A stretch of DNA of 64,000 nucleotides from the NCBI GenBank assembly GCA_004431415.1, contig QPMI01000546.1, forward strand, positions 62,001-126,000. Direction: 5' to 3'. The notes beneath the pieces are model-generated. The model saw only the letters and a list, made by a program, of their open reading frames with translations, searched no databases and had not been told where the DNA came from. A program made the position numbers and the translations under genes. Origin of the DNA: Cyanophora paradoxa CCMP329. Taxonomy: Eukaryota > Plantae > Glaucophyta. Positions 26,232-52,222 of the stretch are shown here, piece after piece (position 1 is the first letter of the stretch; each line of letters begins with the position of its first letter).

Positions 26232-26265
<34 letters not shown>

Positions 26266-26272
26266 GGCCCCC
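26130..26272. repeat. Low-complexity GCTTAAC plus poly-C patchwork
   Basis: Repeated gcttaac(c)n units with C runs of up to ~26 nt. Confidence 0.7.
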
Positions 26273-29470: not shown

Positions 29471-29555
29471 CGTTGCGCTCAATCAGCACTTCCAGCCGAA
29501 CGGCCGAGATGTAAACCGACGACGCCCATGGTAACGGCGTCTCAACGTATACGTA

Positions 29556-29981
29556 TGTTGTATACGCATGGACCTCACACCCGGGCAATTCCGCTTCGCT
29601 CCATTGCCCCCGATTCCATGCGTTTCCAGTGTATACCTCCAGCCCCTCTTCAGTTAATTCACCTTGTACGTCTACGAGACCCTAATTCCCAGGTCTACCA
29701 GACTCGGGTCGGAGTCTTAACAAAGAAATATCTAACGACTATTCAGGGCAGAGCTGACAACTAGAATAGACGAAGAGGAGCGCTGCCCCCTTGAGCGCGG
29801 TCTGTAGAACAACGTGGCAGAATAGGCTAGGCGATATTAATGAGTACAGAGAAGCTAAACGAGGAAACGTGTTAAGCTCTAGCTAGATGTAATTGATGTG
29901 TACAGAGAAGCTAAACGAGGAAAAAGCGTTAAGCTATAGCCGCACGTAAGGACGGGCCCCAGAGCGGTCTGGTGCGGCCTC
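29556..29981 (+). repeat. Left terminal inverted repeat (426 bp, starts TGTTG)
   Basis: Reverse complement of 51796-52222; the only difference seen is one base in a C/G run. Contains an internal repeat gtacagagaagctaaacgaggaaa twice. Confidence 0.97.
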
Positions 29982-30041
29982 ATTCCACCTGATCGGGTTG
30001 CTTCTCCTTTCTGAAACTTGATAGCAAGGACTTTTTTCTTT

Positions 30042-30305
30042 TCAGCGGCTTCGGGATATTTGGGGAGGCCAAGACAATCTTCGGCCTTCAGCATCAAGCC
30101 AAGGTACAGGTGAATCGGTTCGAGTAAATGGAGAATTGGACCTAGAAGTCCTGGGTGTGTTAATAGGCGAAACCTGAGTTTCTGGGGTGCGAGAGCCTTC
30201 TGTGTCTGATATTTCGAGATTAATGGTCGTCTCACAGCAACTACAATTCAATTTGCTGGTGACGTTGAGATGGAACATATCCAAACATTTTCGAAGCAAA
30301 TCCAT
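30042..30305 (-). CDS. Small viral hypothetical protein (CSCC motif, Ser/Thr/Pro-rich tail)
   Basis: 87-aa ATG ORF co-oriented with the neighbouring genes, with an AT-rich upstream region. Confidence 0.45.
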   Translation of the reverse strand: MDLLRKCLDMFHLNVTSKLNCSCCETTINLEISDTEGSRTPETQVSPINTPRTSRSNSPFTRTDSPVPWLDAEGRRLSWPPQISRSR

Positions 30306-30343
30306 CTATTAATGGAAAAATATAAAAAAACAAAGGAATGCAG

Positions 30344-31168
30344 CTATGGAGCTGTATCGCTGCCGAATATAGGAAAATACCTATTAGTGCCGTAGTACTC
30401 TGCATATGTGTTCTGTTTAGCAATAGCATCGGTTCGTTCAGCATAAAGGATACATTTGTAGATACCAAACCTGGTAGCTCTTACTAAAAACTGATAATCT
30501 TCTAATCCGAAATTTACACCATGATAAGCGATTCCAAAGTTATCGTAAGGAGTTATTACCACTGTAATATTCGGAGTTCCACCTTCAACCTGGCAGAGAG
30601 CGTAGATATCAGGTGGGATATCCACTACTACCTTGAAATGATCACCAATTTCAACCAGAGAATCAACTACTGATGTTTGCTCATTAACAACGATTGGAAA
30701 GATCTTAATAATATATGGTGCATTCATGCTGGGAACGTAGGTGCGAATACGCGTTAAATTATCAATCGGGTTCGGTTGATCGTTCACAAAGAGAGGAGCT
30801 CCGATAGCTCCACCAACACGAAGACCATCGCCAACATATGCGCCACCATTTCGGCAGTTAATAGCTCCCGAACGAGATTCGAAGGAATAAGTCGAAAGAG
30901 GATCGCCGTAGCTGTCTGGATCGCCATAATGGGCGCTAAAATTTGCATTTGTAACTAGCAACTTTGTAGTTTTGACCACACCATTATTTTTATCACATCG
31001 GAGTTCCTGCAATCTAAGTTTATGTGTAGATCCGAAGGTATTCATTGTAGGTTGAACCTCTGTTGATTCAAGACCTTCTACATCGTCAAAAGTAGAATGT
31101 TGTAAAACATGTGTAGCTGGGGCTGCGAGCGAAAGTTGTGCCGTGACAATACGCTCAATTTCAGTCAT
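30344..31168 (-). CDS. Viral hypothetical protein, paralog A (possible fibre/structural protein)
   Basis: 274-aa ORF; N-half similar to 31192-32046 (PATH..QH...V.GLESTE, ELR.DKN.GVVKTT.LLV.NANF, GGA..G.G.RV.G). Confidence 0.75.
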   Translation of the reverse strand: MTEIERIVTAQLSLAAPATHVLQHSTFDDVEGLESTEVQPTMNTFGSTHKLRLQELRCDKNNGVVKTTKLLVTNANFSAHYGDPDSYGDPLSTYSFESRSGAINCRNGGAYVGDGLRVGGAIGAPLFVNDQPNPIDNLTRIRTYVPSMNAPYIIKIFPIVVNEQTSVVDSLVEIGDHFKVVVDIPPDIYALCQVEGGTPNITVVITPYDNFGIAYHGVNFGLEDYQFLVRATRFGIYKCILYAERTDAIAKQNTYAEYYGTNRYFPIFGSDTAP

Positions 31169-31191
31169 TTTACATTAAAGTGATATATATT

Positions 31192-32046
31192 TTAAGGTGT
31201 TGGATCGTCAATAACATCTGGCTCCTGGTAAAATCCGGTTGTAAAAATATCAGCAATATTCACACCACGAAGTGCTGAAACAGCAGCTATATCTGTTCTC
31301 AGTCCAATTATCATAGTATTATAAACTCCTACCTCAGTGACAAACAAATCATAAGTAAATGTCAAATTGTTATAAACACAATATCCTCTACCGAAATGGT
31401 TTGATGCTTGAACAAAGAATAGGTAATTGTGACCTGGTTGATTGTTGTTTGCTCTGCACATCGAAAGCATTGCTGTGGGAAGAGGAATATTCCTTCTCAC
31501 ACGATCAGTTCCTGTAATGGAAACCAACTCTGAATTTTCAAGAGTGACAGATGAAGCAACATAGAAGTGAAGAAAAGGTTGCTGTGCAACAGGTGTATAG
31601 AACCGAATTCGTTGCGGGTTCTCCACATTTTGTTCAAGAGTATCTGGGACATCATTGTATGCAATCGAAGAAGAGAGTTGACCGGACACACGACATCCAC
31701 CACCAATAAAAGCTCCACCTGATCTCACAGTAACAGCAGCAGAATTCTTATCGAAGTCAAGGGCTTTCAGATCAACACTGTAAGCATCAGGGCCTCCATT
31801 AGTAGGCTGGAAGAAATTTGCATTGCTTACGAGGAGTCGAGTGGTTTTAACTACACCAGAGTTCTTGTCAGCTCGGAGTTCTTTTACGCGAATAATCGAA
31901 TTCTTATCAAAAGCATTCCCGTTAGAATTAGGACGTTCAGTGGATTCCAGACCGCGAACCTCATCATTTACCTCATGCTGGCGAAAGTGAGTAGCAGGGG
32001 ATCCAAGTGAATAGATAGGTAGCTGAACCCGATTATATTCGCCCAT
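31192..32046 (-). CDS. Viral hypothetical protein, paralog B
   Basis: 284-aa ORF; tandem paralog of 30344-31168 with a divergent C-half. Confidence 0.75.
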   Translation of the reverse strand: MGEYNRVQLPIYSLGSPATHFRQHEVNDEVRGLESTERPNSNGNAFDKNSIIRVKELRADKNSGVVKTTRLLVSNANFFQPTNGGPDAYSVDLKALDFDKNSAAVTVRSGGAFIGGGCRVSGQLSSSIAYNDVPDTLEQNVENPQRIRFYTPVAQQPFLHFYVASSVTLENSELVSITGTDRVRRNIPLPTAMLSMCRANNNQPGHNYLFFVQASNHFGRGYCVYNNLTFTYDLFVTEVGVYNTMIIGLRTDIAAVSALRGVNIADIFTTGFYQEPDVIDDPTP

Positions 32047-32089
32047 TGCTTATTTTACTAAGAAGGAAAGAAAAAAAAGTCGGCAGACA

Positions 32090-32398
32090 TCAAGCCAAAG
32101 TGATTAGATTCGCTCCAAGGGCTTGGTAAGCAACAGAAAGAGCTTGAATATTGGCTGTCATTGCTTTGATATTGCTATCGCACTCAGAGTATTTAGCAAC
32201 AGGTTCGCCATAAGCCGATTGCGCAAGGACATTAACCAAGAGGTTTTTATACTCATTGACAACTGGTGACAGTTTGTTAGTTTGCTGAATTGTTTTTTCG
32301 ACATTTTGTAGCGCGGCTACAAGTTTGATAGTATCGAATGCAAGAGCGACAGGCTCAGAAGTAGTGGAAGGAGTTCCACCAAGTGGATACGTCGCCAT
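32090..32398 (-). CDS. Small helical/coiled-coil viral protein
   Basis: 102-aa ATG ORF with amphipathic heptad-like pattern; AT-rich motif upstream. Confidence 0.65.
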   Translation of the reverse strand: MATYPLGGTPSTTSEPVALAFDTIKLVAALQNVEKTIQQTNKLSPVVNEYKNLLVNVLAQSAYGEPVAKYSECDSNIKAMTANIQALSVAYQALGANLITLA

Positions 32399-32429
32399 TA
32401 ATTATACTGTGACATTTTTATTACGGCAG

Positions 32430-35400
32430 TTAAGCAGCCTGACTGCGCCATTGATCTATTTGATCTTGTAAATCTTTGCATTTCTGGGACAATTCTTTAA
32501 CAGCTTCAATGAGAACAGGAACCAAACCCGTGTATTCGAGAGATAGATAGCCATCGTCTTTTTTCACGTTAACAACCTCTGGTATTACCTTTTCTACATC
32601 TTGCGCAATTAAACCTAATTTTGTTCCATCTTTTTCGCTTCCAATTCGTTTAAAACTCACTCCTTCTAATTTCTCAATCGCTGAAAGAGCGCCTGTTATC
32701 TTTTTAATGTCTGTTTTGTATCTTCTGTCACTTCCCTGTGACAAATATGCCGCAATATACAGGTATCCGCTCTGTTCCAAATATGCTATATTTGTATCCC
32801 ACGTATTTCTAAACTCTACTACTGTTGCTCCGTAACCTTTAATGTATGTAGTTGATGATGAACCAAAATAAACTCTCCCATTACCTTCATCTGATGTTAT
32901 CCAAGTTCCGGTTGCCCAAGTTGTGCGAGCATCTTTACTATATACATTATCCAACTGATCATACCATTTGCTGGTGAGGTTCTCCCTTTTTCTTTCGTCC
33001 ATCCAACCATACCAATATAACATCTCCCTTTTCTTGCAACAAATCTAACATGTGAGAAATAATCACAAGCAAAAGAAGCCCACGCCAAACCATCGTGATA
33101 ATCTGTGGTTCCATAATTTGAGACAGTCTGATAAGTATTAACTCGCATAATGTGGAACCATCGACCTGCTCGATAGCCTCCAATATCGAAATATCGACAA
33201 TTCGACCAACACAAATATTGAACATGACATGTTTGCATATTTGCTGGGACTTCAATTTGCGCCCAGTCTCCACTTGTTGAATCACCTTCAACGATACTAT
33301 AAAATCCATCCACAGGATTAGAAACAGAAGCTGTCCAACCTGTCCCCAAGAACCACTAAATGATAGACCACCACTACCTGTTCCACTCCAAGTATCAAAA
33401 CCTATAATGTTTCCAACTAAACTTGGTGTTAGTAGATTTGGCTTACTATAAATGTTATCCCAAGAAACATAACCTGTGTGACCACCATAACTACTTCCTG
33501 TCCAAGTGCGAGTAAATCCAATGCCCATTATGTGAACTCTTCCTACCTTTGGAATAATACGAAGGCGAATAAAGCGATTTCCCAACATAATAGGGACATT
33601 TTGTAAACCATTGTGGTTTCCATCTGGTGCGCTTTCATATTGATGATAACTATTCACTCTTGCAATGAAAACCGCATTTCCTTGTCTATTAATTCCCCAA
33701 ATCTCAAAGTAACGACAATTTACCCAAGGGAGATATGTTAAGTGGGCTGTTCCCGTATATAAATCAGTGGGTATTGTGTAATCAACCCATGAGCCGTTAA
33801 CAACAGTGTCGCCACTCTCATTATTGTAAGCATACCCACCGTAATTATAGTAGGGTTCCCATGCTGTTCCACCTTCAAAACCCCAACCTCCTGCATAACC
33901 ATGTGGCGAATTTCCTGCAACAGTTGCGTCATACTCTACACATCGAGGCATTGTTTTGTCACCAAATTTATAGTTTGTAGTTGCATTTATTGAACCCCAT
34001 TAATAATTGTTCCACTTAGAGTCGGAGCTGACACAGTATTATTAACTGCAAGGTTACCATTTGAATACGATTTTAATAACCATGCATCTGCTGAGTTTCT
34101 GAATTCGACCGATACACCATCACTATGCTCATAACCTCGAATGTATGTAGTTCCACCATTTCCAAACCAAAATCGTGGGACATTATCCGTTGATTTTAAC
34201 CAAGTGGAGACAGCCCATGTTGCTGTTTGTGGGAGGTCTGCGGCTGTAAATAAAGCGGGACGACTGTAAATATTATCCCAACTAATCAAACCATTCGCTG
34301 GTGCTGTTCTTCCTACTTCTTTTGTCCATCCAAGCATTCCAATGTAAATTCGTCCTTTCTTTGCAAAAATTCCAATATGAGAGAAATTCCCACAAAATAC
34401 GGAAGTCCATAATAAACTCGAATGCCAATTTGTGTCGGCTGTGTTTTGAACATTTTGATACGTATTCACTCTCATAATATAATTCCAACGACCATTGCGG
34501 TATCCATAAATATCAAAATATCTTGAATTCGTCCAACATAAGTATTGTATGTGACAGGTTTTCATTCCTGCTGGAACAACACACTGCATGTAGCCACTGC
34601 CACTTTCATCATCTGTCTGGTTGCAATAAAACCCTCTACTGGGTTATCTGTTGTGGGTTTCCATGCTGTTGTCCAAGCCCCAGCTGGGAATGCTACACCT
34701 GTGCTATTCCAACCACTTACAACATCAAACTCGGAATATTTGCCAACAGGATTGAAAGCAATATTATCGTAATGCAATAATCCTGCATCATTATCAGTTG
34801 CTCTTTGTCGACTCCAACCAAAGACACCTGTAAGATAAATGCGACCTTTTCGCCCTTGAACATATATTTTACTGTAAAATTCGCAGTTTACTGAAGTAAA
34901 TATTATAGCTGGGTATGTTCCATCTTGAACTGCAACATCCTGAAGTCCTTGATAGTTATTTATTCGTCTTAGGAAATGTTGATGTCCATTTACAGTTTGC
35001 CCGTAAATATCGAAATATCGACAATTATGCCACAGTAAAGTTGAATATAAAACGATTTCATACCTTCTGGAATTGTCCAACGCATCCAACAACCCGTAAC
35101 ATCTGCGTCATTCTCAGGTGTCGTATAACATCCGGTTAGTCCCGTTCTATGACCTGTCCAATTAACAGTCCAATTATTTGCGCTTCTATCTGTCGAAACC
35201 ACATCTAATTGGTCAAATTCATAACCTTTCGGTATTGTGGTTCCACCAATTTGTAATGTGGTAGCGTTAACGGTTCCGGTGACGGTTCCACCTGTAAGAG
35301 GTAGATAATTCGCAAGTGCCGCCGCTAATTCTGCATCGGTTGCATAACTGCTTAAATCCGCCGACGTGAGATATCCTTTATTGGTAAGGTAATCATCTGT

Positions 35401-38400
35401 AACAACACCGGAAAGGGTGGTATTGTGTAAGTTTTTTGCCGCCATTCTCTGATTGACTTCTAAGGCGCCTCCTGATGTTGTCTTAATCCACGCCATCTCA
35501 CATTTTCCGTGATCATCTGTGGGTTGTCCTGCAACAGGAAGATAGTTTACAACTTTCTCCCTTGTGAATACTATCTTAGGTCTTGCTCCATCATATGCAC
35601 TTTGATCTGTTACATTTACTTGTATCGCTGCTGAAAAATCCGCTACTTGTCCTGTTTCACCCGGGTGATAATTCGTGACATAGATACTGGGGAAAGTATC
35701 ATTTACTCCTACATTAAAATCACCACTATACACTCCATTTACGATTGGATCCCTGGGTAATCTTACTGCAAGAGTTCCCACCATCGGTGTGCCGTCTTGA
35801 CCTGTAAACGACCCATTGAGACTAACATAATGATCATTCAAAAATAGCCTTTCAGGTGTATTAATCGATTGGTAAAGTGTGACTCCATTAAAAACGTTTC
35901 CGATTGCATTCAATTGTGCGAATACTGGCTGTTCGTCTATTTCGTCCCAATTGTGCCTATGTGCAAAATCTGAGATATCCACTTTTGTGTGGGTATGTGC
36001 AAAATCTGTAATATCTGCTTTTAGGTGAGTATGTGCAAAGTCTGTAATATCTGCTTTAAGGTGGGTGTGTGCAAAATCTGTGATATCTGCTTTTGTGTGA
36101 GCATGTGCAAAGTCTGTAATATCTGCTTTTAGATGAGTATGGGCAAAGTCTGAGATATCTGCTTTTGTGTGAGTATGGGCGAAATCTGTAATATCCGCTT
36201 TGACGTGTTCATGTGCGAAATCCGTAATATCGGCTTTGACGTGTTCATGTGCGAAATCTGTTATTTGATCTTTTGTGTGAGTGTGGGCAAAATCTGTAAT
36301 ATCGGCTTTGACGTGTTCATGTGCGAAATCTGTAATATCGGCTTTAACATGTTCATGGTCTGAGGGTGGGAATTTTTCGGGTGCGTCAGGGATATTATCC
36401 CATCTAAAATAATCTTCTGTTACGACTCTTGAAATATTTTCGTTATGAATGTTTTTCGCTGAGGCTCTCTGATTGATTTCTAAAAGACCCTCAGGAACTC
36501 CACCATTATAATTTGTTTTAATCCATGCTACCTCACATTGTTTATAATCGTCACGATCTCCTAAAAGTGTTTCTGCTGCGAGTTGCTCACGGCTGAATAT
36601 TAATTTCGGTCTTGATCCATCCAAATCGCTTACATTCGTCACATTAATTTGTATGGCTGCGTTTTTGTCTGTATAGTTTGCCGGATCTGATGGTAAAGAT
36701 ATTAAACCTCCTGTCATTGGGACGTCTTCCGCATAATAACTGGTTAAGTAGATTCCCGGTTTTGTGTCTTTTATTTCAATACCACCACCAAGTGGTAATA
36801 TTACATCCCTTGTGGGTGGTCTAATATACAATTCGCCATCCATTGTGGTGCCTGCATCGATTCCCTGACGATTCACATAATAATCGTTTAATTGTAATCT
36901 TTCTGGTGTGTCTATATTTTGGTAGAGACTCACACCATTGTTAATATCTCCTAATAATACATTTCCTGCTGATGCAAAAGTGGGCTGCTCTCGTATTTCG
37001 CTCCAAATATGTAAATGGTCTTCCGGCGGAAACTCAGGTGGAATTCCATCGATATCGCCCCAATCATGCCTGTGATCTTCAGGTGGATATTTCTCAGGTT
37101 TACCCAAGATCTCATCCCAATCATGGTTGTGATCCTCTGGTGGATATCTCGCTGGTTTGTTGTTGATCTGTTCCCAATCTGGAAAGAACTCAAAAAGCTC
37201 CGGTTGTAATCCATCTGGTAAAAACTCCTCATGGGTTCATAAGGTTGCTCATAATCCACAACTGGTGGTTCGAGACCATCTGCTAAATATTCCTCATGGG
37301 GTTCATAATTCTGTTCATACTCAAACTCTTGTGGATCTAAACCATCGGGTAAATACTCTTCCTCATTTGGGTCGTATTGATCATACTCATACTCTTGCGG
37401 GTCGAAACCGTCAGGTAAAAACTCTTCCTCATCTGGGACAAATTGGTAATCATCAAGCTCTAATATATCGATTTCAGGAGGTAAATACTGTTCATCTATT
37501 TGTTTTTTCGGTTCGAAGATAGGTTTATTGCGAACTTGCTCCCAACTGACAATATGTTGACCGAAAGGAACTGTCTCATCAGCAACTCGCTCTCGACCAG
37601 GTCCATCCGGGATTGGCGGCTTTGGTAACCCTGGAAGAGGTGGTATAGGGACAATAGGTCCGAAGTAGTAGTTGAAAATGTTGATAACCTGCTCTTCAGT
37701 GCTAACCTTCTTACCATCCTGATAAATATTAGTTCCATGAATATTTCTCCACTGCCTGGTGCGAAGCCCTAGGTCATATCTATCATGCAATGCCGGGAGC
37801 AGGTGCCTGTCAGCCTCAATCAAGATAGAGCCGAAGGTGCATCCAGGAATATCGAACCTGGTGGCTGGCTCGGTATCGATTTGATTTACATCAAACCCGA
37901 AAAGAAGATTTGCTTCTCGTGCATCGGTATATAGTAGATCCCAGGGGAACGGCTGAATTTGTGATGCAAGCACTGATATTGCAGCATCTTCGCCAAGGAG
38001 AATTCGCCCAGTGATTTGAGCCGCAGTTTTGTTTGCGACATCATTTGATTCATCAATTAGACGTAGAGCTGATGTATGGACCCCTCTATCATTTTGGAGC
38101 CTAAATATCAATCTACCAGAATCATACTTGGAGACTGTGCCTGAGGAGGCAATTCGCAGGTGTCGTGGCAACGCCCTGGACCCAATAATTTCAGCAACAA
38201 AGTTCTCAGTGGGACCAAGACAGAATCTCTGTGCAATATCTGGGGCACCAACGTGAGAGTTCCGCAGAATTAATGCAGCTGGTCGACTAAACTCGGTCCT
38301 GTGGATGTCACGATCAGCATTGAAGTCTGCCAAGATGCTTCCAAATACGCGAATATTTATGAGTCGATCATCAACGAAATCTGGAGATCTACGAAGTGGC

Positions 38401-38426
38401 ACTGGCTTCTTCAAGATGTAGGACAT
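32430..38426 (-). CDS. ~2000-aa modular tail-fibre-like protein with C-terminal Peptidase_S74 intramolecular chaperone (seven ORF pieces joined by six single-base frameshifts)
   Basis: C-terminus SDRRYKTDIKKI..AL..IEKL.GV.F...GLIAQDVEKVIPEVV...L.YTGLVPVLIEAVKEL; PPEDHxHxW repeats; HxHxKADITDFA repeats; four ~130-aa repeats containing WxNxRYFxI. Confidence 0.85.
35950..36357 (-). repeat. Eleven 36-bp coding tandem repeats (HxHxKADITDFA)
   Basis: Seen directly in ORF 34990-37107 and in the DNA (gcaaaatctgtaatatctgcttt...). Confidence 0.95.
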
Positions 38427-38450
38427 TTTTATATAAGCCCCCTTTTAAAA

Positions 38451-39934: not shown

Positions 39935-40258
39935 GCGGCGGCATGAATGCCCAGGAAATCAGAGAGAGTCCAAGACGTGTTGGAATAGTTCTGCCAGATT
40001 TATCTTTCTCCCAAAATGGTGCTCCATTACGCCTCCCAGTCGCCTCTTAATGTAATTCTCTCTTCGCTGATACCAAGTTGTGTTTTTGGTTGCGAGCTCC
40101 TTTTTGATTCCGTCAGGACCAAATCGGCGGTAAGCTTGCAGAAAACCTAGGTTTGTTTGTGTGCTTGGCTTATCTCCAATCGCAACAAGTGATACTTTTT
40201 TGTCCCGCATCAACGGTAAGTACTTTTCAATCTGAGCTATGGGCATCAACTGCGACAT
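39927..40258 (-). CDS. Viral hypothetical basic protein (~110 aa, one frameshift)
   Basis: GFLQAYRR...WYQRRENYIKRRLG continues as NGAPFWEK...PTRLGLSLISWAFMP after a +1 correction. Confidence 0.6.
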
Positions 40259-40352
40259 TTTTTATATATTGTGCCAAGAAATAAAACGGGGCGGAGGCAC
40301 AGCCGAGCTGCTTGTCTGCGACTTTTCAAATCAGTTTGTCTGGCGACTTTCC

Positions 40353-41267: not shown

Positions 41268-41295
41268 TTTTTATTCTCTAACTGATATAAAAAAG

Positions 41296-42252: not shown

Positions 42253-42327
42253 GCTAAGCTCGCGGCACGCAAGCGAGCCTTGGCGAAGCGGCAGAATTAT
42301 TTTCTTTCACTGCAATTATATAAATCG

Positions 42328-43715
42328 ATGGATGTCACTCAAAATTTGCAGCGGCTCGGCCTCAAAGAGCTCCTGACAACTCCACAGGAAGCGAAGGACT
42401 TCTTTATGAACAATGAGCTTATGTTGGGTCTAACGAGCCAAACCAAGCCTGTTCGTGTTGTTGTCAACCCAAGCAATGACTATGGAGACTGCTTCGGTAA
42501 ACGAGTCACCTACTTCCTTCCCAGATACAACTTCCTTCAGGGGCTCGAACTCCAGTTTACCCTGCCCGAGTTGACCGCTTTTACTGGTGACACTGACCTG
42601 GTTCGCACTGGTTATCTGCGGTCTGTTGGTGCTCTTGTAAAGCGAATTGAAATCAAATATGCTTCCTACAGCTACATCGTCCCCGAGGACTGGCTTGTTC
42701 ACAGCGCACTGATTTACAATGATGATGCTCAGCTCAAAAAGAAATACCGGTCCGGTGGCTGGCTACATGGAACACCACCTCAGGGGACAAATCGCGCTGG
42801 AGGTATTTTCAGTGTAAAAATCCCATGTCCCTGGAGGGTTCTGTGCTCCCAATTGGTGCTCTTTCTGGCGAGGTGTCTGTCGAGGTTTGGTTCCGTGATC
42901 GTGCCCAGGGCTTTGTTGAAACCAGCTATGGTGGTAGGTTTGTAACGGAATATGCCATCGGCGGTGATGCCACTAAAGAGGATGGCCTTGGTAGTGTTGG
43001 AGCTGCCGCTGCTTCCCCTGCAAACATCGGCCAGAATATAACTCCCAATGTTCTCAGTGTCACCCCTGCCAATCCGGAGCTTTCTAATCCAAAGATTATT
43101 GCTCATTGTATCAACGTTGATGAGGCCACTTTTGCCCAGGTGATTGAGAAAGTCAAAACGTCTGGAATCGCAATTCCCGCTACCGATGTCGGCTGGGTTG
43201 ATGCTGATTCAATTACTTATGCAGGTGCGGGAGCGCCCACCCGGATTAATCTGTCTCAAATCAGTGGACTTTGCTACGGCCTGTTCGTTAGCATTCGCAA
43301 GCAGCCAAACATGAACCAAACTGATGGAAAACACAGTGTCCTCAAAACCGAGGCTAATGCTCGCGATATCACTATTTCCTGCGAATTGAATGGCCAGCGG
43401 CTTTATTCAAATGAGCCTGTTCCTCTCTTGCAAGGTGCCGAACTCATCGCTGATGTCTTCAAGTGCTCCAATCTCGACGCACCTCTTAATCGGTATGTTC
43501 TGACTGGTTTGCCATTTTGCATTAGTGGGGATAAATCGATTCGAAATGCTGCTCAAACTGGTTTCGTAGATCTGACGAACTCCAGCAGCTGCTTCCTGAA
43601 TATCATGAACCCTGCTGCTTACGATGCTAACAACAAGATTTACGTCCAGGTTCGAGCTCTCCTTCACACTGTACTAATTGTTGATGCTGCGGGTCTTCGC
43701 AAGGTGAACCTCTAG
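42328..43715 (+). CDS. Major capsid protein, double jelly-roll (frameshift near 42833, ~460 aa)
   Basis: FGKRVTYFLPR..FLQGLELQFTLPEL...GALVKRIEI...EDWL...VLPIGALSGEVSVEVWF, and TGFVDLTN near the C-terminus; lies between a penton-like gene and the ATPase. Confidence 0.75.
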
Positions 43716-43777
43716 TCGAATTGTCGTCAGACAAGCTGCCTTGGCTGCGCCTGCGAATCTCGGTAGTTAATTTTTTG

Positions 43778-44527
43778 ATGGATCAGTCTCAAGAGCTCGC
43801 ACAGTTCCAGCCGGGAGACATGAGGGTCCCTTTCAAAGCCCTATTTATATCGAAGTCCAATAGCGGCAAATCGTTCTATTGCACAAAGCATCTGCTTCGA
43901 CTGCTGTATCCAAAGATCAACCGAGTCGTCGTTTTCACTGCCACCAAATTCAATGGTGAATACTCTGCAATAACTAAAGAGCTTTACGACGATTTTCAGC
44001 CATCTATCGTTGCAGAAATCATTGATTCACAGCGCAATTTGATTGAAAACAAAAAGAAAGCGCCGCAGATATTGCTAGTCTTGGACGATCTTGTTGCCGC
44101 CTCTGAAACAGTGGATCTGCGAAATAGCAAGGCTGTAAATCGACTTTTTACGCAGGGCCGACATTTTAATATAAGTACGATTCTTATGACCCAAAAACTA
44201 ACAGCATTAAGTCAATCTATAAGATCAAACAGCGATTACTGCTTTTTCTTCAGTTACAGCAACCACACTGAACTGGAGGCCATTTATAGAGAGTTTAGCC
44301 ATCTTCCAAAAGAAGAATTTATTGCTTTATTTCAAACTTGGGCTCACGATTATCAGTGCCTAGTCCTGGATGGGACCAAATACGATACGGCCTGGTTCGT
44401 CGATAAAGCTGTTGAAGATAAGAGTTTTCGTTTTACAAAATGGGTTAAGAATGAACCTGAAGAACGTAAGACCGAAGATTCTTCGCCTGTTGTCTCTAAA
44501 AAGAAGCGTTTTAAAATCTTACCATAA
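43778..44527 (+). CDS. A32-like (FtsK-HerA) DNA packaging ATPase
   Basis: Walker A SKSNSGKS, Walker B LLVLDD, LFTQGRHFNIS, TQ, SIRSNSDY. Confidence 0.93.
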   Translation: MDQSQELAQFQPGDMRVPFKALFISKSNSGKSFYCTKHLLRLLYPKINRVVVFTATKFNGEYSAITKELYDDFQPSIVAEIIDSQRNLIENKKKAPQILLVLDDLVAASETVDLRNSKAVNRLFTQGRHFNISTILMTQKLTALSQSIRSNSDYCFFFSYSNHTELEAIYREFSHLPKEEFIALFQTWAHDYQCLVLDGTKYDTAWFVDKAVEDKSFRFTKWVKNEPEERKTEDSSPVVSKKKRFKILP

Positions 44528-44536
44528 GAAAAGAAC

Positions 44537-45175
44537 ATGGGTCGCGGGATTCCTAAGAAGGGCTATCGTGAACGACGCAAGGTTAATATATCTGAGCCGA
44601 ACGCCCCACTGATTGAAAGCGGCTCGACTGAGGGTGCAGCTGTTGCTGATCCTAGCGGAGAGCTAGCTAGTGAGCCCCAATTAAATGCACCTGTCGCTAA
44701 AACAATTGCCTCCGCAGCTGCTGGTGCCAGTGCAATTGACGACCGACATGCCCAGGCTAAAACCGTTACGGAAATGCAGTCTGATATCGATGATGATGCT
44801 GCTAGAATTATCCAAGCCATGGCGTCTGAGCCTAGATACTCCGGTCCAAAAATCAAGACAGCATCGGTATCAAAGACGCAGTTTGACGAACTAGCTGCTA
44901 AATTGCGTGATCTAGAAGCGAGGTCGGCTAATATCGAGAGCTACGTAAAAGACAAGCAAGAGAGAGCTAAAATTCGTGAGATGTTGCGAAGCGAAATGTT
45001 TAAGACAAGAGTGATGGATGCACCTGATTTGCGGTATTTGAAAAACGAAAAAGCTAAAGCCGAGCAATCGCTTGACTCTGCCGAAGTAAAACCAGCAACT
45101 CCAAATGTTTTTGAACCCAATTCTACGAGCTCACAGATGAAGAATGCGATGGGTGGGAGAAGGATTCGTCTGTGA
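44537..45175 (+). CDS. Viral hypothetical protein, basic N-terminus and coiled coil
   Basis: 212-aa ATG ORF directly after the ATPase. Confidence 0.7.
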   Translation: MGRGIPKKGYRERRKVNISEPNAPLIESGSTEGAAVADPSGELASEPQLNAPVAKTIASAAAGASAIDDRHAQAKTVTEMQSDIDDDAARIIQAMASEPRYSGPKIKTASVSKTQFDELAAKLRDLEARSANIESYVKDKQERAKIREMLRSEMFKTRVMDAPDLRYLKNEKAKAEQSLDSAEVKPATPNVFEPNSTSSQMKNAMGGRRIRL

Positions 45176-45698
45176 AATTCAGACGCAAGAACGGCTTATC
45201 ATCTTCACTGGTATGTCCTATAGCGTAAGCATCACGGGCTCTCGCTGCAGCTTCAGCAGTGGTAAAGTATCCGATGTGCTTTTTGCGACCATTTATCCGA
45301 TATTGCGCATACCATTTTCCACGCTGCTGATGGAAGCAAACACCAATGAAACCACTTGTGTTATTTCGCAGCTGGCCACGATTCAAATTCTGCTGCCGCT
45401 TTGTAGCAAGTCGTAGGTTCTCGCGGCGATTATCGAGTTTGTTCAGATTTATGTGATCGACAGTCAAACCGTTCTCCAACTCTCCAGAGATGAAATTATG
45501 CAAATACACATTCTTTCTATTGATTTTGGTTTGGGCGTATCCATATTTATCCAAACGCCAGCGAAATCCGAGCACACGTTGAGCATCATCCTGTGAAACA
45601 AGAGCATAAGCTACAACAATTCCATATCTGCCATTCCTACGACCAGTAATCGGAATCAGAGCAACACCTTCAGGGACATCTGGAATTGTGACCTCCAT
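45123..45698 (-). CDS. HNH endonuclease with C-terminal AP2 DNA-binding domain
   Basis: YLHNFI...VDHINLNKLDNRRENLR...QNLN; NTSGFIGV...KWYAQY...HIGYFTTAEAAARARD. Confidence 0.93.
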   Translation of the reverse strand: MEVTIPDVPEGVALIPITGRRNGRYGIVVAYALVSQDDAQRVLGFRWRLDKYGYAQTKINRKNVYLHNFISGELENGLTVDHINLNKLDNRRENLRLATKRQQNLNRGQLRNNTSGFIGVCFHQQRGKWYAQYRINGRKKHIGYFTTAEAAARARDAYAIGHTSEDDKPFLRLNFTDESFSHPSHSSSVSS

Positions 45699-45727
45699 CT
45701 TCTTTACAATCTGAGATTGAGATCTCT

Positions 45728-46018
45728 TTAAGGCAAGTCAAAATCTGGCAAATCCGGAAGATCCTCCACAGTAGGTTTTCTCTCTCGCTCAGCGAAGTCA
45801 AGCATTCCGTTGACTGTTGCCAGATCTTCCAATTGACAAATTTCAAAAGCCCGCTGCAATTCACGTTTGTCGTACTCACGAAGATGCGGCCAAGATAACA
45901 ACCATTCCGCATATTTTGGGTCGCTAAAAACTACTTTAAGATGAGTTTCACCGCGGTACTTCCCAAATCGAATTGTTCCTGCGGCGCAGCGACGCTGCTT
46001 GTCTAGATCTGCGTCCAT
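45728..46018 (-). CDS. Small FGKY-motif protein (exonuclease-X C-terminal/DUF3820-like)
   Basis: IRFGKYRGET...DPKYAEWL. Confidence 0.65.
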   Translation of the reverse strand: MDADLDKQRRCAAGTIRFGKYRGETHLKVVFSDPKYAEWLLSWPHLREYDKRELQRAFEICQLEDLATVNGMLDFAERERKPTVEDLPDLPDFDLP

Positions 46019-46127
46019 TATTTGAATTATATCTCGGATTTTATGTTCGGAATTTAACGCAACACAAACCTGCGATTTATGCCATAAAAAGATTTCGTAC
46101 CTTGTTTGTGACGAGAAAACCAAAGAA

Positions 46128-46403
46128 ATGGATGTTGAATCATCAACTAAACAGCGTGGTCGCAAACCAATTGTTGTCACCCCTGAAATTGCTGCGGCAC
46201 GAAAAGCAAAGCGTGCTGAAAATCATCGCCGTCGTTACAATGAAGATCCGGAATTTCGCCGACGACACATTGAAGCCAGTTCGAAATACCAGCAGAACAA
46301 CAGCGAGAATCATTTAGAGGCCAATCGCCGCTATCGCAATCGAATCTACGAAAAGTTAGCACTGCTAGAGTCCCTCCAACAATGTGTTGTTATAGCTCTT
46401 TGA
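46128..46403 (+). CDS. Small basic putative DNA-binding protein
   Basis: RGRKP (AT-hook-like) followed by an Arg/Tyr-rich helix. Confidence 0.6.
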   Translation: MDVESSTKQRGRKPIVVTPEIAAARKAKRAENHRRRYNEDPEFRRRHIEASSKYQQNNSENHLEANRRYRNRIYEKLALLESLQQCVVIAL

Positions 46404-47526
46404 CTAGCCTTCTGGTCTTTGTTCTCTCTAATATTCCACCAGGGTTTAACTTGACAGTTCCAGCTGTCGCAAGTTGCTTTTGAAGGCGAAGCAGCTTCTT
46501 ATTTTTTTCTATGTCCACTCGATCTAAATTCTCTCGCATCAGATTTAGCTCCTTCTTTCTGCGCTGCTGTGACCGCTGTGCTGCATTTCCCGCACGACGT
46601 TCCTCTGAATCTACTGGGACCTTTAAAAGTTGCTGGTAGGTCACTGGTGTATCCGATCCAGCGAGTTTAAATCTTAGAAGGGGTCCAAAACCCCCAATCA
46701 ACTCAATTCGAAATACTTCTTTCGAGAAGGTTGGCTTTGTCGATTTATCGAAGGTTCTCCTGGTTAGCTTAACTCGAACTAGGTCTCCTACTTTAAATTC
46801 GACCTCCTTCAGGTAGTGTTGCTGCTCGTAGATCTCTCGCTGATAATCGTTGCGCGCGATTGTCTCCTTCGGATTCTCTGCTGCAGCGTTTGGCGATGTA
46901 CCAATCGACCTATGCTCTGACGAATTATAATTGCGCAAGAAAGCGGGCAGCTTGTCGATGTACCTATCCGTGTCATATGCCTCCATATACCGTGCAATAA
47001 CTCGCTTCAAAGTTCCATTAAATCTTTCTATTTTGCCGTTTGCTTGTGGTCGATGCGCTTCCACAGCATTGTGCTTAATTCCCTCAGCTTCTAACAAACT
47101 ACCAGCTGAAGCTTTAAACTCCTGATCTGTCTGAATAATATCCGGCTTGGCTGGAAAACTATCTATGAGTTTCCGTAGTGTTGAAAGGAGTGTACTTTCG
47201 CTCTTGTTCTTCATTGGAATGCTGTAGGCTTTCCGAGTCACTACGTCCACTGCGTTCATTATAAAGTGAATACCGCGGTTTGTTCTAGCGTACGGAGTCA
47301 CGTCGATTAGGTCCACCTCGTAGTATTTCTCTGCTTTGTCGTATGTTATACTTGTGAATGGTTTCTCTTTTTGCGGCCTCGCAAATCTTTGCGCTGTCGA
47401 TAATTTCTCCAGCACTTCTCTAACCCTGGAAACTGGTATTTTCAACTTCTTGGCAATACGTGTGGCAGACTGAAGCCCTATTTCTGGATCATAGTATGCC
47501 TCCTGAATTTTGGCTGATGTACTCAT
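46390..47526 (-). CDS. Retroviral-like (rve) integrase, Polinton type
   Basis: YYDP N-terminus; DDE triad in EVDLID, VDVVTRKA, QTDQEF and IERFNGTLK; YNSSEHRSIGTSP; FKVGDLVRV. Confidence 0.95.
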   Translation of the reverse strand: MSTSAKIQEAYYDPEIGLQSATRIAKKLKIPVSRVREVLEKLSTAQRFARPQKEKPFTSITYDKAEKYYEVDLIDVTPYARTNRGIHFIMNAVDVVTRKAYSIPMKNKSESTLLSTLRKLIDSFPAKPDIIQTDQEFKASAGSLLEAEGIKHNAVEAHRPQANGKIERFNGTLKRVIARYMEAYDTDRYIDKLPAFLRNYNSSEHRSIGTSPNAAAENPKETIARNDYQREIYEQQHYLKEVEFKVGDLVRVKLTRRTFDKSTKPTFSKEVFRIELIGGFGPLLRFKLAGSDTPVTYQQLLKVPVDSEERRAGNAAQRSQQRRKKELNLMRENLDRVDIEKNKKLLRLQKQLATAGTVKLNPGGILERTKTRRLVKEL

Positions 47527-50500
47527 GAGGAACTGTGCTGTAATAGTCATCCGAAATTATCTTTCGCTTTGTGTATTCCGTCTTATTTAATACTCTGCTG
47601 AATGGAATCTGAATGATTGAACTAAAACCTATCCCCTCCTCGCGTTGCTTTCCATTCGGTTTGAAGACACGAGATAGTTTAGACTCTATTTTGCACTCCG
47701 GCTGATACCGGCTCTCAAGCATCTGCTTGAACGCTTCCAAAGCAACCCGAGAATGGAGGTGCCCCTTCCTCATCTCCGGATCATTCGAAAGCCAGTTCTC
47801 TTCGATCCAGCTTTTTGGTATTCCTTTGGCACGCACATGCACGTCCGATTCACCGTTCGCTTTCACGTACCGACAACAGTACACCTTGGGCCCAACGAAA
47901 TACGCCTCCACAATGTGTCCCTGGATATCGTAATCTAGTTTTCCAAGTTCGCTCTCGCAGATCACCCTGTTCGCCTCCTCTTCGCCCATTCCCTCCACAG
48001 AGTAGGGCCGCTTCATGCAATCAGTCACCAGCTCTGCAAATTTCCTGTGCACAACAAGAGAGTCCGTGTCCGTGTAAAACGGCATGGCTTCGATGTCTTT
48101 ATAAGAGTTCATCTTTACTAGGAACCTGTCCATTATCTCGCGACTGTAGGACAGAATAAATGCTCCAATAAAACAGGGCTTCGACACACAAGCATCACGT
48201 TTGCTCTCAGGTACTTCATATGTCACATACATCCGTGTTTCACTCTCAATTTCGATGTCTGTAATCGTAGACGTCCGCTGTAGCTCCTTAAATCGGCGGT
48301 AATTAGAAACTAGCTCTGTTGTTTCGATCACAGGCCTCTGGGCAAATTTTCCGTAAAGACCATTTAATTGAATCTTTGCTGTTGCGTACTGAGCTGTGCC
48401 CTTCCTTGAACGAGCTTTCATACAGTATAACTTCTCGATGTAATCTTTAAACATTCTCTCCTTGCCTTCAAATAAATACACCTCGTGAACTTCTGTTATT
48501 TCCACCCCAAGCGCTATCGCCCTGTAGATATCAACCGATGTATACATCTCGCGCTCGATCGGTTTCAGGTTCGACCAGCCCAAATTCGACTCGTGACGAG
48601 GTAGCGAGAAAGCACAAGGTCCTGAGGAATTTTCGCACTGATGCTCGCAATGAACAGTTGCTCCATTTTTCGACTTAACATGAACTTTCTAAAACGTTCT
48701 AATGCCTCCGGTTCATTGATTAGCTTAAATTTACCTGTAGGAAACTGGTTAAAGTACATAGCGGTTGGATATAGAGAGACCACATCCAGATCTACCAAGT
48801 AATCATCTGGACCCTTCGAGACAAACTTGCGTTTGAATGGTAAACAGCGACCTCCGTAAATCGCCCTGCGAAACACCTGATCTTCACTATACTTCGGAAG
48901 TTGCAGCTCTGTCTTCAACAGCTGCCGGTAAATCTGAAAAGCCATTGATGAAGCTGTAAGTGTTTGTTTGGAATTCACATTTATTCCAAATAGATCAAAG
49001 CTCGTACTCGAATATTTCATGTATAGCTCCGTCATCGATCGCACGTCGGCTCTAAGATATTCTCCCCATTCCTCCTTGTGTGTCTCAACGTCTGCCCACG
49101 TCTTGATCTTGCGATGGTCAAAGTCTCCTTTGATTGTCGTGCAGCCGTAGTCCTTTCCAGCCTGTTTTAGTGAACCTTGAATATGTAGGCACGGGTCAAA
49201 ACTCGTCAACTCTCCTCCTGCTGACGTCTTCCATTTCATACTCTTAATCTTGCCCGAGGAGCGCATGACGTTCACCTGGCTTTCTGGCCGATTCTCAATC
49301 AGCCATCGGTATATGAATATCAGATCAAAACCAGCACCGTTGTAAAATACTACTGTGGTCTTCTCTGCCCAAGCATCCAGCCATTGCATGAATTGATTTA
49401 ATGTTTCAGGACCGTAAAACATCTTGGTTCCTACAATTTCGCCCTTGCATATTATGTCTGTGTCAACAGCATAAGGAACGTGGGTCTTGCCATCACAAGG
49501 AAATGTTTCAAAGTCAGCCCCTATCACGCTATCCATCGCTGTAAATTCACTCTCCTTTTCGCAAGGAGTAATCTTTCTTCCAATAACACCTTTGTTTCTG
49601 ATGGCGGCAACGCATTTGTTTGTGTGATCTTCAATTGGATTGTAGGCGCAACGACATCTAGCACAAAACTGACAGGTTAGCTTGTGTCTTTCCAGTTCGA
49701 ACTGCATTTTCCCGCAGGCACTACACTTCTCCATCTCAGTCGTTCTTTTATCCTTAATCAGGTAGCAGTGCACATCGACTATACAAAGGTGAGCACGTTT
49801 TTCAAATCCTAGATCGGTCGCAAAAAGCAGCTTAAACTTTCCTTGCGAAAACTCAAAAACGCTGGTGTCTATTCTGTAAAAAGCGCTCAGCTTATTAATC
49901 GTTGGCACATCAACTGATATCATTCCTCGCCGCAGTCCTAGCTGTGTTCTAATCCCTCCGTAGTCCAGTCTCTGAAGTTGCTTGTAAATTCGATCAAGGC
50001 TTATTCTTCCAGGGTTTAGCTTCACATATTCAAAACACTCAAGCACACAGTTGTCTTCTGGTGAAATCGGACAGTAGATCTTATTCATGGTCAGGGCTTT
50101 GCCATTGAATGGGAGTTTCGGTACGTTTCCAAGTGCGCCTGCAGCGTTCTCTGCAATGAGCACCTCTATTTTCACTACTGGCCAAAGGTCGTTGTCTTCA
50201 TATGGCTGCTGCGCTAGCATCCATTGTTCCATCTTTTCAGCCAGATTTGACAAGAGCGACTGCATTGTGCCCTCTTCGATTGTTGCTAGTTGAGTGCGAT
50301 ACATGCGAAAGTTATCGAAATGAAACCGAATTAGGACGCTTGATCCTATTTTCTCTGGAATTCGCAGCTCTCTCAGAAACTCAATCGTGATCTCTTTAAC
50401 CCGCTCAGGTATTGGAGTCGGATCAATATCCAAAATATCCTTGGTAAATAACAACCCCGGATATGCATAGTGAGTATAATTTAACACGGTATCACCTCGA

Positions 50501-50814
50501 CCTGTCTCGCGAAATAAATTCGAGATCCCATACTCTACAATTTCATCAAACTCTCGCGTGGCTTCAATTCGAGCATTGCGTTCGTTCTCAAAATGACTTG
50601 TTATCCATGACTGGTACAAAGGGCGCTGCGGCCGGTTCGTCTGTCTAAGTCTAAGCAATGTTGAAAGATTAGCTCGAAGATTTTGTGTGTGGGTTCCCCT
50701 CTGTGGGTCTGCTAGTCGCATCAGTGTGTTCAAATATGTTCCGTTAATGTACCTAAGATTGTGTAGCTCCTGCGCTAGACTCCGAATTTCAGCTCTCAGA
50801 TTGTTCCTGTCCAT
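47489..50814 (-). CDS. Protein-primed family B DNA polymerase (frameshift near 48605)
   Basis: Exo motifs ADFET, YNGAGFD, YLRADV; Pol motifs YGGRC, DVVSLYPTAM, KIQLNGLYGKFAQ, YTDTDS, GPKVY; long N-terminal region with a Cys-rich cluster. Confidence 0.95.
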
Positions 50815-50949
50815 TATGAATAGGTCTCTACAATATTGGATGGCCGAAAACTTTTTGGGATTTAATCGCAGACAATCTCTGATTGCTAGTATGTATGCGA
50901 GAAACCTTTAAGTCATACAACTTACTGCAAGACCTGTCTCCGGCTAGCA

Positions 50950-51001
50950 ATCAGCGCACTATCAGCGCACTATCAGCGCACTATCAGCGCACTATCAGCG
51001 C
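50950..51001. repeat. 11-bp tandem repeat (ATCAGCGCACT, ~4.7 copies)
   Basis: Seen directly upstream of polB. Confidence 0.9.
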
Positions 51002-51003
51002 CA

Positions 51004-51771
51004 ATCTTTTGTGTGTCACGTATCTCGCCACGTCACAGCGTCACGTCACGGCGTCCGCAAAGTTTTCTCGCCAACTTGACCCTCCGAATTAAAACAATTA
51101 AAACAATTAAAACAAAAGAAAAGCTCCAAAGGCAGAAACTTCTGAGCCTGCAGTCTGACGGATCTAACCGGTACCTGTTTCGTCGACTGACCGCTGAGCT
51201 TGCAAAATAATTAAATTGGGCTTGCGACTTTTCTATTTCCAAAGTTCAACAATTGCAGGCTTTTTCAGAGTTCAAGCTTGTCCACAACCCCGGTCGTGCA
51301 CCTCCAGGCTCTCACCGCGCAGCCTCGCTAGCTTGCAGCGGTTATAGCTAGCTGATGATGTACGAATCGCTTTCCCGGTCCGTCCGTAAGCGCAGGGCGC
51401 ATCGATGTGATGAAAGCATCGTTTGGACGTGAGCTTGTCCACAAACCCGGTCCTGTTAATTTCGCAACTAATTGTGCTTTTCATCAATTTTCAGAGAGTC
51501 AGAGCTCACTCGGCTGATAAAGTCATAGCTCTGGGTCTAGCGGTCCTAGCCGGAGCGCTCTAGCTCCGAACCGACTAGGCGACTGCATCCAACCGGTCAA
51601 CCGTCCAACCGGCCAGCGTTAAGTTTAAACTTGAAACTTGTGATCTTTTGTGTGACACGTATCTCGCCGTTTTCTCGCCACGTCACAGCGTCACGTCACG
51701 GCGTCCGCAAAGTTTTCTTAGGAACTTGACCCTCCGAATTAAAACAATTAAAACAATTAAAACAAAAGAAA
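51004..51771. repeat. Subterminal ~120-bp direct repeat pair (51004-51121 and 51643-51771)
   Basis: Both copies contain cacgtcacagcgtcacgtcacggcgtccgcaaagttttct and aacttgaccctccg followed by (aattaaaac) three times. Confidence 0.9.
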
Positions 51772-51795
51772 GGTAAAGTCATCGACACATCTCCA

Positions 51796-52222
51796 GAGGC
51801 CGCACCAGACCGCTCTGGGGGCCCGTCCTTACGTGCGGCTATAGCTTAACGCTTTTTCCTCGTTTAGCTTCTCTGTACACATCAATTACATCTAGCTAGA
51901 GCTTAACACGTTTCCTCGTTTAGCTTCTCTGTACTCATTAATATCGCCTAGCCTATTCTGCCACGTTGTTCTACAGACCGCGCTCAAGGGGGCAGCGCTC
52001 CTCTTCGTCTATTCTAGTTGTCAGCTCTGCCCTGAATAGTCGTTAGATATTTCTTTGTTAAGACTCCGACCCGAGTCTGGTAGACCTGGGAATTAGGGTC
52101 TCGTAGACGTACAAGGTGAATTAACTGAAGAGGGGCTGGAGGTATACACTGGAAACGCATGGAATCGGGGGCAATGGAGCGAAGCGGAATTGCCCGGGTG
52201 TGAGGTCCATGCGTATACAACA
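51796..52222 (-). repeat. Right terminal inverted repeat (427 bp, ends CAACA)
   Basis: Reverse complement of 29556-29981. Confidence 0.97.

Follow-up and report, generated by a model that had tools for sequence, protein, structure and literature searches.

The closest described relatives of the element that we report here, a 22,667 bp provirus in a 64,000-nucleotide stretch of Cyanophora paradoxa CCMP329 DNA (contig QPMI01000546.1, positions 62,001 to 126,000; hereafter the window, in whose coordinates all positions are given), are the Polinton-like viruses (PLVs) already catalogued from this glaucophyte alga. Bellas 2023 (PMC10120064) counts 366 major capsid protein (MCP) matches from C. paradoxa; 272 of them fall in cluster 20 and the other 94 in cluster 28. 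Both clusters are marked as new and have no group name in Table S4, and the species is not mentioned in the main text of that paper. Bulzu 2025 (PMC12220804) tabulated 156 glaucophyte (Glaucocystophyceae) PLVs as a set and not element by element: an A32 ATPase was counted in 139, a minor capsid protein (mCP) in 97 with a model of its own, lipases in 89, the integrase rve in 85, an AdoMet decarboxylase in 66, the DNA polymerase pPolB in 49, HNH_3 in 40, the fibre domain S74 in 37 and a methylase in 10 matches. A protease and a tyrosine recombinase were counted in none, the MCP-POL model caught two, and the virophage MCP model matched none of the 156. Adintovirus-like proteins have been noted in C. 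paradoxa contigs (Starrett 2021, PMC8502044), and the main texts of two 2026 preprints, by Bellas and Sommaruga (10.64898/2026.06.19.733378) and by Barth et al., do not name Cyanophora or glaucophytes. Within the literature covered, which took in part of the supplements, the Cyanophora family appears as catalogue entries and we found no description of it as a lineage.

The element, at positions 29556-52222, is a genuine Polinton-like provirus in the host chromosome. It is probably a full-length PLV that belongs to the multi-copy family catalogued in C. paradoxa, and this copy is likely recent and intact. With the PLVs of Bellas 2023 and Bulzu 2025 it shares the type of MCP (58-67% identical to a listed one), the A32 ATPase, rve, pPolB, HNH_3, S74 and a lipase, as well as the lack of a recognizable maturation protease. 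It differs from the tabulated set in having neither AdoMet decarboxylase nor methylase, and in a candidate pair of penton genes, of which the portions of these sources that were compared make no mention. In gene content it is an ordinary member of that family and carries no mark of a new lineage.

Boundaries and genes of the provirus

The limits of the element follow from an inverted repeat of 411 nt (29550-29960 and 51818-52228) whose arms are 100% complementary. The hexamer TACGTA flanks both ends (29550-29555 and 52223-52228, a 6/6 match), with no longer duplication found. As this hexamer is palindromic, it could alternatively be the outermost bases of the terminal inverted repeats (TIRs); because the sequence inside it begins TGTTGT and finishes ACAACA, giving TG...CA ends, we read it as a 6 bp target-site duplication. 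The TIRs are then perfect over 405 bp, the left at 29556-29960 (+) and the right at 51818-52222 (-), and a further pair of 28-nt arms (29954-29981 and 51796-51823, 96%) prolongs them beyond a one-base difference, on the left to about 29981. Both host-element junctions lie on short-read contigs without a differing letter in all three DNA-type runs (2012, 2019 and 2024), so the insertion is real. GC content is 0.44 in the element, 0.69 in the left flank and 0.59 in the right flank, and no second copy was found within the window. Within each TIR a 42-nt repeat occurs twice at a spacing of 56 nt (29826-29923 and 51855-51952); contig joints suggest that the number of these units varies between copies.

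Our annotation combines a Pfam scan of 25 open reading frames (ORFs) with added PHROGs and NCBIfam scans. Seventeen genes span 89% of the element, gaps longer than 110 bp occur only at its two ends, and the catalytic motifs are kept in the patatin, integrase, polymerase, ATPase and S74 domains. The element shows three of the features by which PLVs are broadly recognized, namely a TIR-bounded genome within 14-40 kb, a double jelly-roll MCP and an A32 ATPase, and the claim of a preliminary description of this locus that it is a complete endogenous Polinton-like virus with TIRs and a target-site duplication is borne out by repeats, duplication, gene set and junctions alike. The same holds for the MCP, discussed below, and for the pPolB, rve integrase, ATPase, patatin and HNH-AP2 genes named there; these last five have Pfam matches (that to AP2 being below cutoff).

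The MCP gene (42328-43715, +, one frame break) gave no Pfam match, and a search of PDB sequences returned nothing meaningful. Its C-terminal half has a single match among 2,963 candidates, the C. paradoxa protein P0001 from EukProt (60% identity), and its two fragments are 67% and 58% identical to that protein. A model of P0001, built on a 4-row alignment (four of eight rows kept, with the fragments P0005 and P0006 left out) and reaching a pLDDT of 57.7, matches Vp54 of PBCV-1 (E 1.3e-15) and other giant-virus capsids; the Sputnik MCP follows at rank 48th (E 1e-9), below chlorovirus and iridovirus capsids. We call the gene a double jelly-roll MCP because this 58-67% identical paralog models as a capsid, and the P0001 sequence is a confirmed MCP in Table S2 of Bellas 2023, with an HHpred value of 98.5% to an iridovirus capsid. 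Atlas placed the MCP at 0.98 to capsid clusters, NCLDV (nucleocytoplasmic large DNA virus) capsids best, with recognition below its mark. Among 1.84 billion representatives the MCP had five other matches. One of these, P0003, was rejected as a spurious match to a bacterial repeat protein. P0004 and P0008 (ENA) and P0002 (Logan) are distant capsid relatives of 26-38% identity on short contigs of up to 11.9 kb, and they are the sole sign of this MCP type outside the named Cyanophora record. Scans of viral contigs with ATPase, MCP, pPolB, integrase and penton queries, and of metagenome contigs, all of which need close peptide matches, gave no locus at which a relative could be seen in its gene context.

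Downstream of the MCP lies the A32-type packaging ATPase (43778-44527, +, 249 aa), identified by Pox_A32 (E 2e-9; 38 bits against a cutoff of 22.8), a Walker B motif LVLDD and a GRH motif; its Walker A motif, SKSNSGKS, opens with Ser where Gly is usual. A protein search found one weak match among 334 candidates. The sub-cutoff Pfam match to Zot (E 0.0025) was rejected, being attributable to the common P-loop fold.

On the opposite strand, the pPolB gene (47489-50814, -, about 1,109 codons, one break near 48605) matches DNA_pol_B_2 in two pieces (E 5e-32 and 5e-20) and has exonuclease and polymerase motifs. Ahead of the exonuclease, its N-terminal region contains DNC..C at 254 and HCY at 349, and the resulting Cys256/His349 pair is placed as in the vOTU protease of polinton pPolBs, a domain described together with its role in PMC11161782; a vOTU-like domain is therefore likely here, judging from residue positions. 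A protein search with residues 120-430 found no homolog among 1,511 candidates, and PDB sequences yielded nothing meaningful for the N-terminus. The neighbouring rve (DDE) integrase gene (46390-47550, -, 386 aa) is unbroken and is recognized by rve_3 (E 3e-8) and its motifs. Beyond pPolB extends a non-coding arm (50815-51817). Its repeats, at 50950-51121 and 51643-51771, comprise five tandem units of 11 nt and a direct repeat of 99 nt; the copies of the latter are 650 nt apart, bracket no coding sequence and end at the right TIR extension. No tRNA or Rfam match was found in this arm. Repeats adjoining replication modules are discussed in Barth 2026.

Two genes are candidates for a penton pair, a likely identification suggested by motif and position. 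The first (41296-42252, +, 318 aa), a penton or minor capsid candidate, lies directly upstream of the MCP and has a sub-cutoff match to DUF5901 (E 0.046); the second (40353-41267, -, about 305 codons, three breaks) is arranged head to head with it. Both have end motifs in common, which we take to be those of PLV and NCLDV pentons. Alignments of the pair gave 25% and 28% identity, and this similarity was not significant: for fragments of the second gene set against the first, the score was reached by 125, 1820 and 205 of 2000 shuffles, and BLASTP agreed. Neither a PDB sequence search (with the 318-aa ORF and penton profiles) nor a phage tblastn search (with the 318-aa ORF) found a match. The two penton-like genes of the preliminary description therefore keep the support of position and end motifs, and have gained none from databases or from each other. 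Two mCP genes occur in several Trimcap B PLVs (Bellas and Sommaruga 2026), and the literature covered, with supplements in part, held no report of a penton pair in the Cyanophora family.

The left part of the element is occupied by fibre-type genes and a lipase. Because the six frame breaks in the long fibre gene (32430-38426, -, about 2,000 codons) are likely assembly errors, we treat its seven fragments as one gene. Its product has acidic repeats, 12-aa PTR-like repeats (PTR E 7e-4, below cutoff), four repeated domains of about 125 aa that are 25-40% identical, and a C-terminal S74 chaperone with SDxRxK (Peptidase_S74 E 5e-17), and it matches tail fibres in PHROGs; a profile of the 125-aa repeats had no PDB match. 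Two paralogous ORFs without family match, of 274 aa (30344-31168, -) and 284 aa (31192-32046, -), share 35% identity over 259 aa (E 2e-42) and may encode short spikes, trimeric in the case of the 284-aa product. The best Atlas match of the latter (0.81) is at chance level. Its three-copy model scored 0.52 against 0.00 for the best control, with a pLDDT of 34-35 and runs that share at least 14% of contacts, on a scale calibrated with two copies, in which 21 of 30 solved self-pairs and none of 23 single chains attain the mark. This model lends weak support to self-association of the protein, and says nothing in favour of a fibre role. Head to head with the long fibre gene stands the patatin phospholipase gene (38451-39934, +, one break near 38954; Patatin E 1e-22), with GGGARG, GTSTG and DGA motifs. 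Its C-terminal domain of about 130 aa is possibly discoidin-like, by analogy with fusions in the literature; no family matched it here, and PDB sequences gave nothing meaningful.

Upstream motif and proposed life cycle

The hexamer TATAWW occurs at positions -25 to -1 of 9 of the 17 genes, compared with 3.07 in shuffled sequences (4 of 5000 shuffles reach the observed number), and it lies 7-21 nt before the ATG. It is concentrated in the virion arm, where 8 of 10 genes carry it, compared with 1 of the 7 other genes. For plain TATA in the same upstream interval, the observed number was reached by 100 of 5000 shuffles. The two head-to-head pairs are separated by TATA-rich spacers of 24 bp (fibre and patatin, 38427-38450) and 28 bp (penton candidates, 41268-41295). 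Read by analogy, the motif hints at short-leader transcription by a giant-virus polymerase.

These observations are consistent with a model in which the rve integrase inserted a linear genome, as the TG...CA ends and the 6 bp duplication suggest. The integrated copy would be silent and probably CpG-methylated, in keeping with PMC12344493, which reports CpG methylation of viral and repeat genes in C. paradoxa, most of them silent, along with giant-virus insertions in this host. Provided that the element is the provirus we take it for, we lean towards induction by a co-infecting giant virus, the late transcription machinery of which would read TATAWW. The induced element would excise and be copied from its TIRs by pPolB through protein priming, and the vOTU-like domain would release the terminal protein. 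The A32 ATPase could then package the genome into a double jelly-roll capsid for which Ulp1/adenain maturation would not be needed. On the surface of such a particle, the S74 chaperone would trimerize and release the long fibre, which may bind host surface glycans, and the patatin lipase would breach the membrane, as proposed for Gezel-14T. Between family members, replication and capsid modules are presumably swapped.

A virus that needs no helper is possible, although we find it less persuasive. Such an element would rely on the nuclear RNA polymerase II of its host for transcription and would replicate after demethylation or stress, like TsV-N1. Its own full-length pPolB, with both exonuclease and polymerase motifs, and its own fibre would suit autonomy, TATA-like motifs would suit the host TATA-binding protein, and autonomous lytic PLVs are known to exist. 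However, TATAWW stands 7-21 nt from the start codons, and two gene pairs have spacers of only 24-28 bp. Such short distances leave little room for polymerase II promoters followed by a 5′ untranslated region. Moreover, Gezel-14T has a fibre and a polymerase of its own, yet needs a helper (10.1101/2022.07.28.501842), a giant virus reactivates the integrated PLVs of Tetraselmis (10.1101/2025.10.09.676808), and helper promoters are used in virophage systems according to both of these sources. We therefore continue to favour the giant-virus-induced provirus.

Several points count against our overall interpretation of the element. It is described here from sequence, and its particles, free DNA and helper virus are postulated. 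TATAWW was chosen post hoc, after inspection of the sequence and from three patterns tried, and host polymerase II could use a TATA box just as well; the ATPase gene, which should in principle be late, is without the motif; and the mimiviral early motif AAAATTGA occurs once in the element, which is chance level. Database searches brought no confirmation for either of the two penton candidates. The vOTU assignment depends on two residues, and the model of the N-terminal region of pPolB (pLDDT 38) matched nothing and was too poor to use. Finally, the short-read contigs pool all copies of the family, so the intactness of the present locus is unproven.

Placement and the entry genes

The preliminary description had set the element apart as a distinct lineage, with roughly 40% of its genome given to attachment and membrane penetration, two pentons and no protease. 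Its statement that no maturation protease is recognizable stands: no ORF has a Pfam, PHROG or NCBIfam match to a Ulp1/adenain protease, the HW..D/E..Q..C pattern was not found in six frames (a very remote protease being possible), and the Q..C(G/A/S) motif is in none of the eight unassigned ORFs. Two other proteolytic domains are likely, as predicted from sequence: S74, which is self-cleaving (Bulzu 2025), and the vOTU-like Cys256/His349 pair. The lineage claim does not follow, as it was drawn from a comparison with Mavericks and virophages, whereas PLVs usually lack the protease. Gosseviruses are the only major PLV group in which a maturation protease is a core gene (2026 classification preprint), and a reduced morphogenetic module without it is typical of Aquintoviricetes (Bulzu 2025); since its absence is the usual state of PLVs, it is no mark of a distinct lineage.

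The figures for the entry genes depend on the two paralogous ORFs. With the 274-aa and 284-aa genes counted as fibres, fibre-type genes amount to 7,677 bp (33.9%), close to the 8 kb first described and including one S74 fibre of about 2,000 codons, and together with patatin to 9,161 bp (40.4%). The proposed 40% holds on that count; without these two genes, which have no family match, the share is 33%. Such an entry kit is not peculiar to this element. S74 fibres have been called ubiquitous in PLVs, most of which have such proteins of more than 1,000 aa, and glaucophyte PLVs are reported to have fusions of discoidin and patatin, which are read as entry factors (all Bulzu 2025). A described set with largely the same fibre and lipase content and no protease exists in the 156 glaucophyte PLVs (89 lipase, 37 S74, 0 protease).

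What remains of the proposed distinctness concerns the capsid. The MCP type is divergent and belongs to no named PLV group of the tables compared. A lineage defined by an enlarged attachment and penetration module, two pentons and the lack of a protease can draw on the 33-40% of the genome given to entry-type genes, on the scarcity of MCP matches noted above, on the two of 156 elements caught by the standard PLV MCP model, and on the unnamed state of clusters 20 and 28. Nevertheless, we consider it unlikely: the lack of a protease, the long S74 fibres, the lipases and the discoidin-patatin fusions are all common PLV traits, the entry module is not constant within the family, a double mCP is known in Trimcap B, and the distinctness lies in capsid sequence and not in the entry kit.

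Among the named groups, Gezel-14T (Phaeocystis globosa virus virophage, Aquintoviricetes) shares with our element the MCP, an mCP (a candidate here), the A32 ATPase, long phage-like fibre, lipase, homing endonuclease and linear genome; it has a tyrosine recombinase, TVpol, an alpha/beta-hydrolase lipase and the early motif AAAATTGA, whereas our element has rve, pPolB and patatin and is not enriched in that motif. As is typical of Aquintoviricetes, the morphogenetic module is reduced and lacks a protease. With respect to the PgVV, TsV or Dino-type MCPs of that class, clusters 20 and 28 are unlabelled, and the MCP-POL model caught only two glaucophyte elements. Mavericks/Polintons and Gosseviruses (Polintoviricetes) share pPolB with its likely terminal protein-vOTU front, rve, TIRs, a 6 bp duplication, MCP and ATPase, and phospholipases are common in group 2; their Ulp1/adenain protease was not found here, and the MCP, if a member of cluster 20 or 28, falls outside the Mavpol-labelled clusters of Bellas 2023. 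The cysteine maturation protease of Virophaviricetes was likewise not found. Those Trimcap group B PLVs that have two mCP genes differ in having three MCPs, compared with one here.

Mriyaviruses, Zoravirus VC102, VC218 and Zephyrvirus combine PLV-size genomes with MCPs close to giant-virus capsids, and rve is common in Zora and VC218. The VLTF2/3, HUH and Mriya48 proteins of such NCLDV-like small viruses were not recognized in our element by Pfam, where several ORFs are unassigned and Mriya48 falls outside the profiles used. Because the fold of most PLV MCPs is similar to that of NCLDV capsids (Bellas 2023), the NCLDV capsid match does not place the element. A bolder picture would have the Cyanophora elements form a deep capsid lineage outside the named PLV groups, perhaps close to the small viruses that are related to giant viruses, with the present copy intact, its two pentons bearing one long and two short spikes, and the whole an inducible provirophage that answers to a glaucophyte giant virus through a TATAWW late promoter; taken together, we hold this to be doubtful.

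The role of the patatin can also be read differently, as a defence or cell-death effector of CapV type that harms the cell infected by a giant virus, and not as an entry enzyme. In NCBIfam it scores best against CBASS_lipase (105 bits, cutoff 200) and the anti-phage phospholipase DS2_1 (57, cutoff 400), and polisuviruses have been suggested to carry conflict genes. However, both matches are far under their cutoffs and reflect the common patatin fold, and the gene stands head to head with the fibre gene and carries the virion-arm motif. Fusions of patatin and discoidin are read as entry factors, and particles of Gezel-14T contain fibre and lipase (10.1101/2022.07.28.501842). An effector role seems improbable to us, and entry remains our preferred function.

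Copy state, small genes and genomic context

Thirteen frame breaks interrupt six genes: six in the long fibre, three in the second penton candidate and one each in the patatin, the 110-codon ORF, the MCP and pPolB. Contigs have one extra base at all 13 breaks in runs X1 and X10, and at 12 of 13 in run X14. Single-base places sit at runs of at least three like bases in 13 of 16 cases, a check that excludes four small differences near 41267 and 46002-46120. As the contigs supply the extra base and the TIRs are identical, we read the breaks as long-read consensus error, and false frameshifts in such regions were described by Bellas 2023. The breaks are thus likely assembly errors in an intact copy.

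Were the breaks true mutations, the element would be a decayed copy, incapable of forming particles or of moving. Thirteen breaks in six genes within the window invite this view, and the contigs with the extra base may derive from other copies. Yet the TIRs are identical, the fragments contain no in-frame stops, coding density is 89%, and each break is one missing base, mostly in base runs, which is the pattern of long-read consensus error; we accordingly think decay quite improbable. Least credible of all is a misassembly or a contaminant fused to host DNA, for although the GC contrast is sharp and no listed contig covers the whole element, the unaltered junctions in runs of three different years and the 6 bp duplication largely refute it.

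The short-read contigs also bear on the family as a whole. Depth in the three runs is 69-72, 13-20 and 24-32 for flank contigs, and 617-794, 182-244 and 284-431 for single contigs of the pPolB/integrase region, and it reaches 1498-1709 and 486-497 for single contigs of the penton region; contig depth is no copy number, and the deeper contigs inside the element fit a multi-copy family. Each run has 800-1,900 matching contigs that differ at hundreds of sites, which would be expected of diverged copies in which capsid modules outnumber pPolB modules. Other gene orders are implied by a joint that links 45738 to 41236, seen in three runs with a short side of 32-35 letters; a joint that skips the HNH gene was seen in one run only, over 24 letters; as contigs were matched at 90% likeness, joints are weak evidence. 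Module exchange has been reported for PLVs generally (Bellas and Sommaruga 2026) and for one QPMI01 contig. Two runs guessed to be RNA, X21 and X22, gave five and one short matching pieces.

The gene concerned by the second joint encodes an HNH-AP2 endonuclease (45123-45698, -, 191 aa; HNH_3 E 3e-11, AP2 below cutoff) and overlaps the 3′ end of a 212-aa ORF (44537-45175, +), the product of which is charged, has no Cys and has no Pfam match. It is likely a mobile homing endonuclease, with other neighbours in other copies or absent from them, as contig joints indicate. The remaining small ORFs are less informative. One of 87 aa in the window (30042-30305, -) has no family match; a one-base difference in short-read contigs, close to where it stops, makes an extension into the TIR possible. 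A 102-aa ORF (32090-32398, -) has sub-cutoff matches only, and an ORF of about 110 codons (39927-40258, -) is joined across one break near 40031 by contig comparison. A 96-aa ORF (45728-46018, -) has an ExoX C-terminal-like match below cutoff in Pfam/NCBIfam, and a basic 91-aa ORF (46128-46403, +) has no Pfam match.

The host DNA around the provirus contains other mobile elements, and a scan of ten flanking ORFs returned no host marker gene. A retrotransposon with a gag-like ORF, reverse transcriptase/RNase H (weak Pfam matches) and a tyrosine-recombinase-like ORF occupies 6176-11349 (-) and is presumably a DIRS/Ngaro element. A hAT transposase dimerization domain (57187-57723, -; E 8e-7) marks a DNA transposon remnant 5 kb to the right of the provirus. 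Low-GC stretches (47-50%) are also found at 26001-27000, 52229-53500, 55001-56000 and 60001-62000.

Overall, our work adds one more well-bounded example to a family that is counted in hundreds in the same host. With a seemingly intact copy in an alga that is grown axenically (PMC12344493), it should be practical to test for particle formation by glaucophyte PLVs and to look for their inducers. Standard PLV models overlook the Cyanophora MCP type (2 of 156 elements caught), and two 2026 classification preprints make no mention of it in their main text. Placing this MCP type could fill a gap in the taxonomy of Preplasmiviricota, in an early-branching archaeplastid host.

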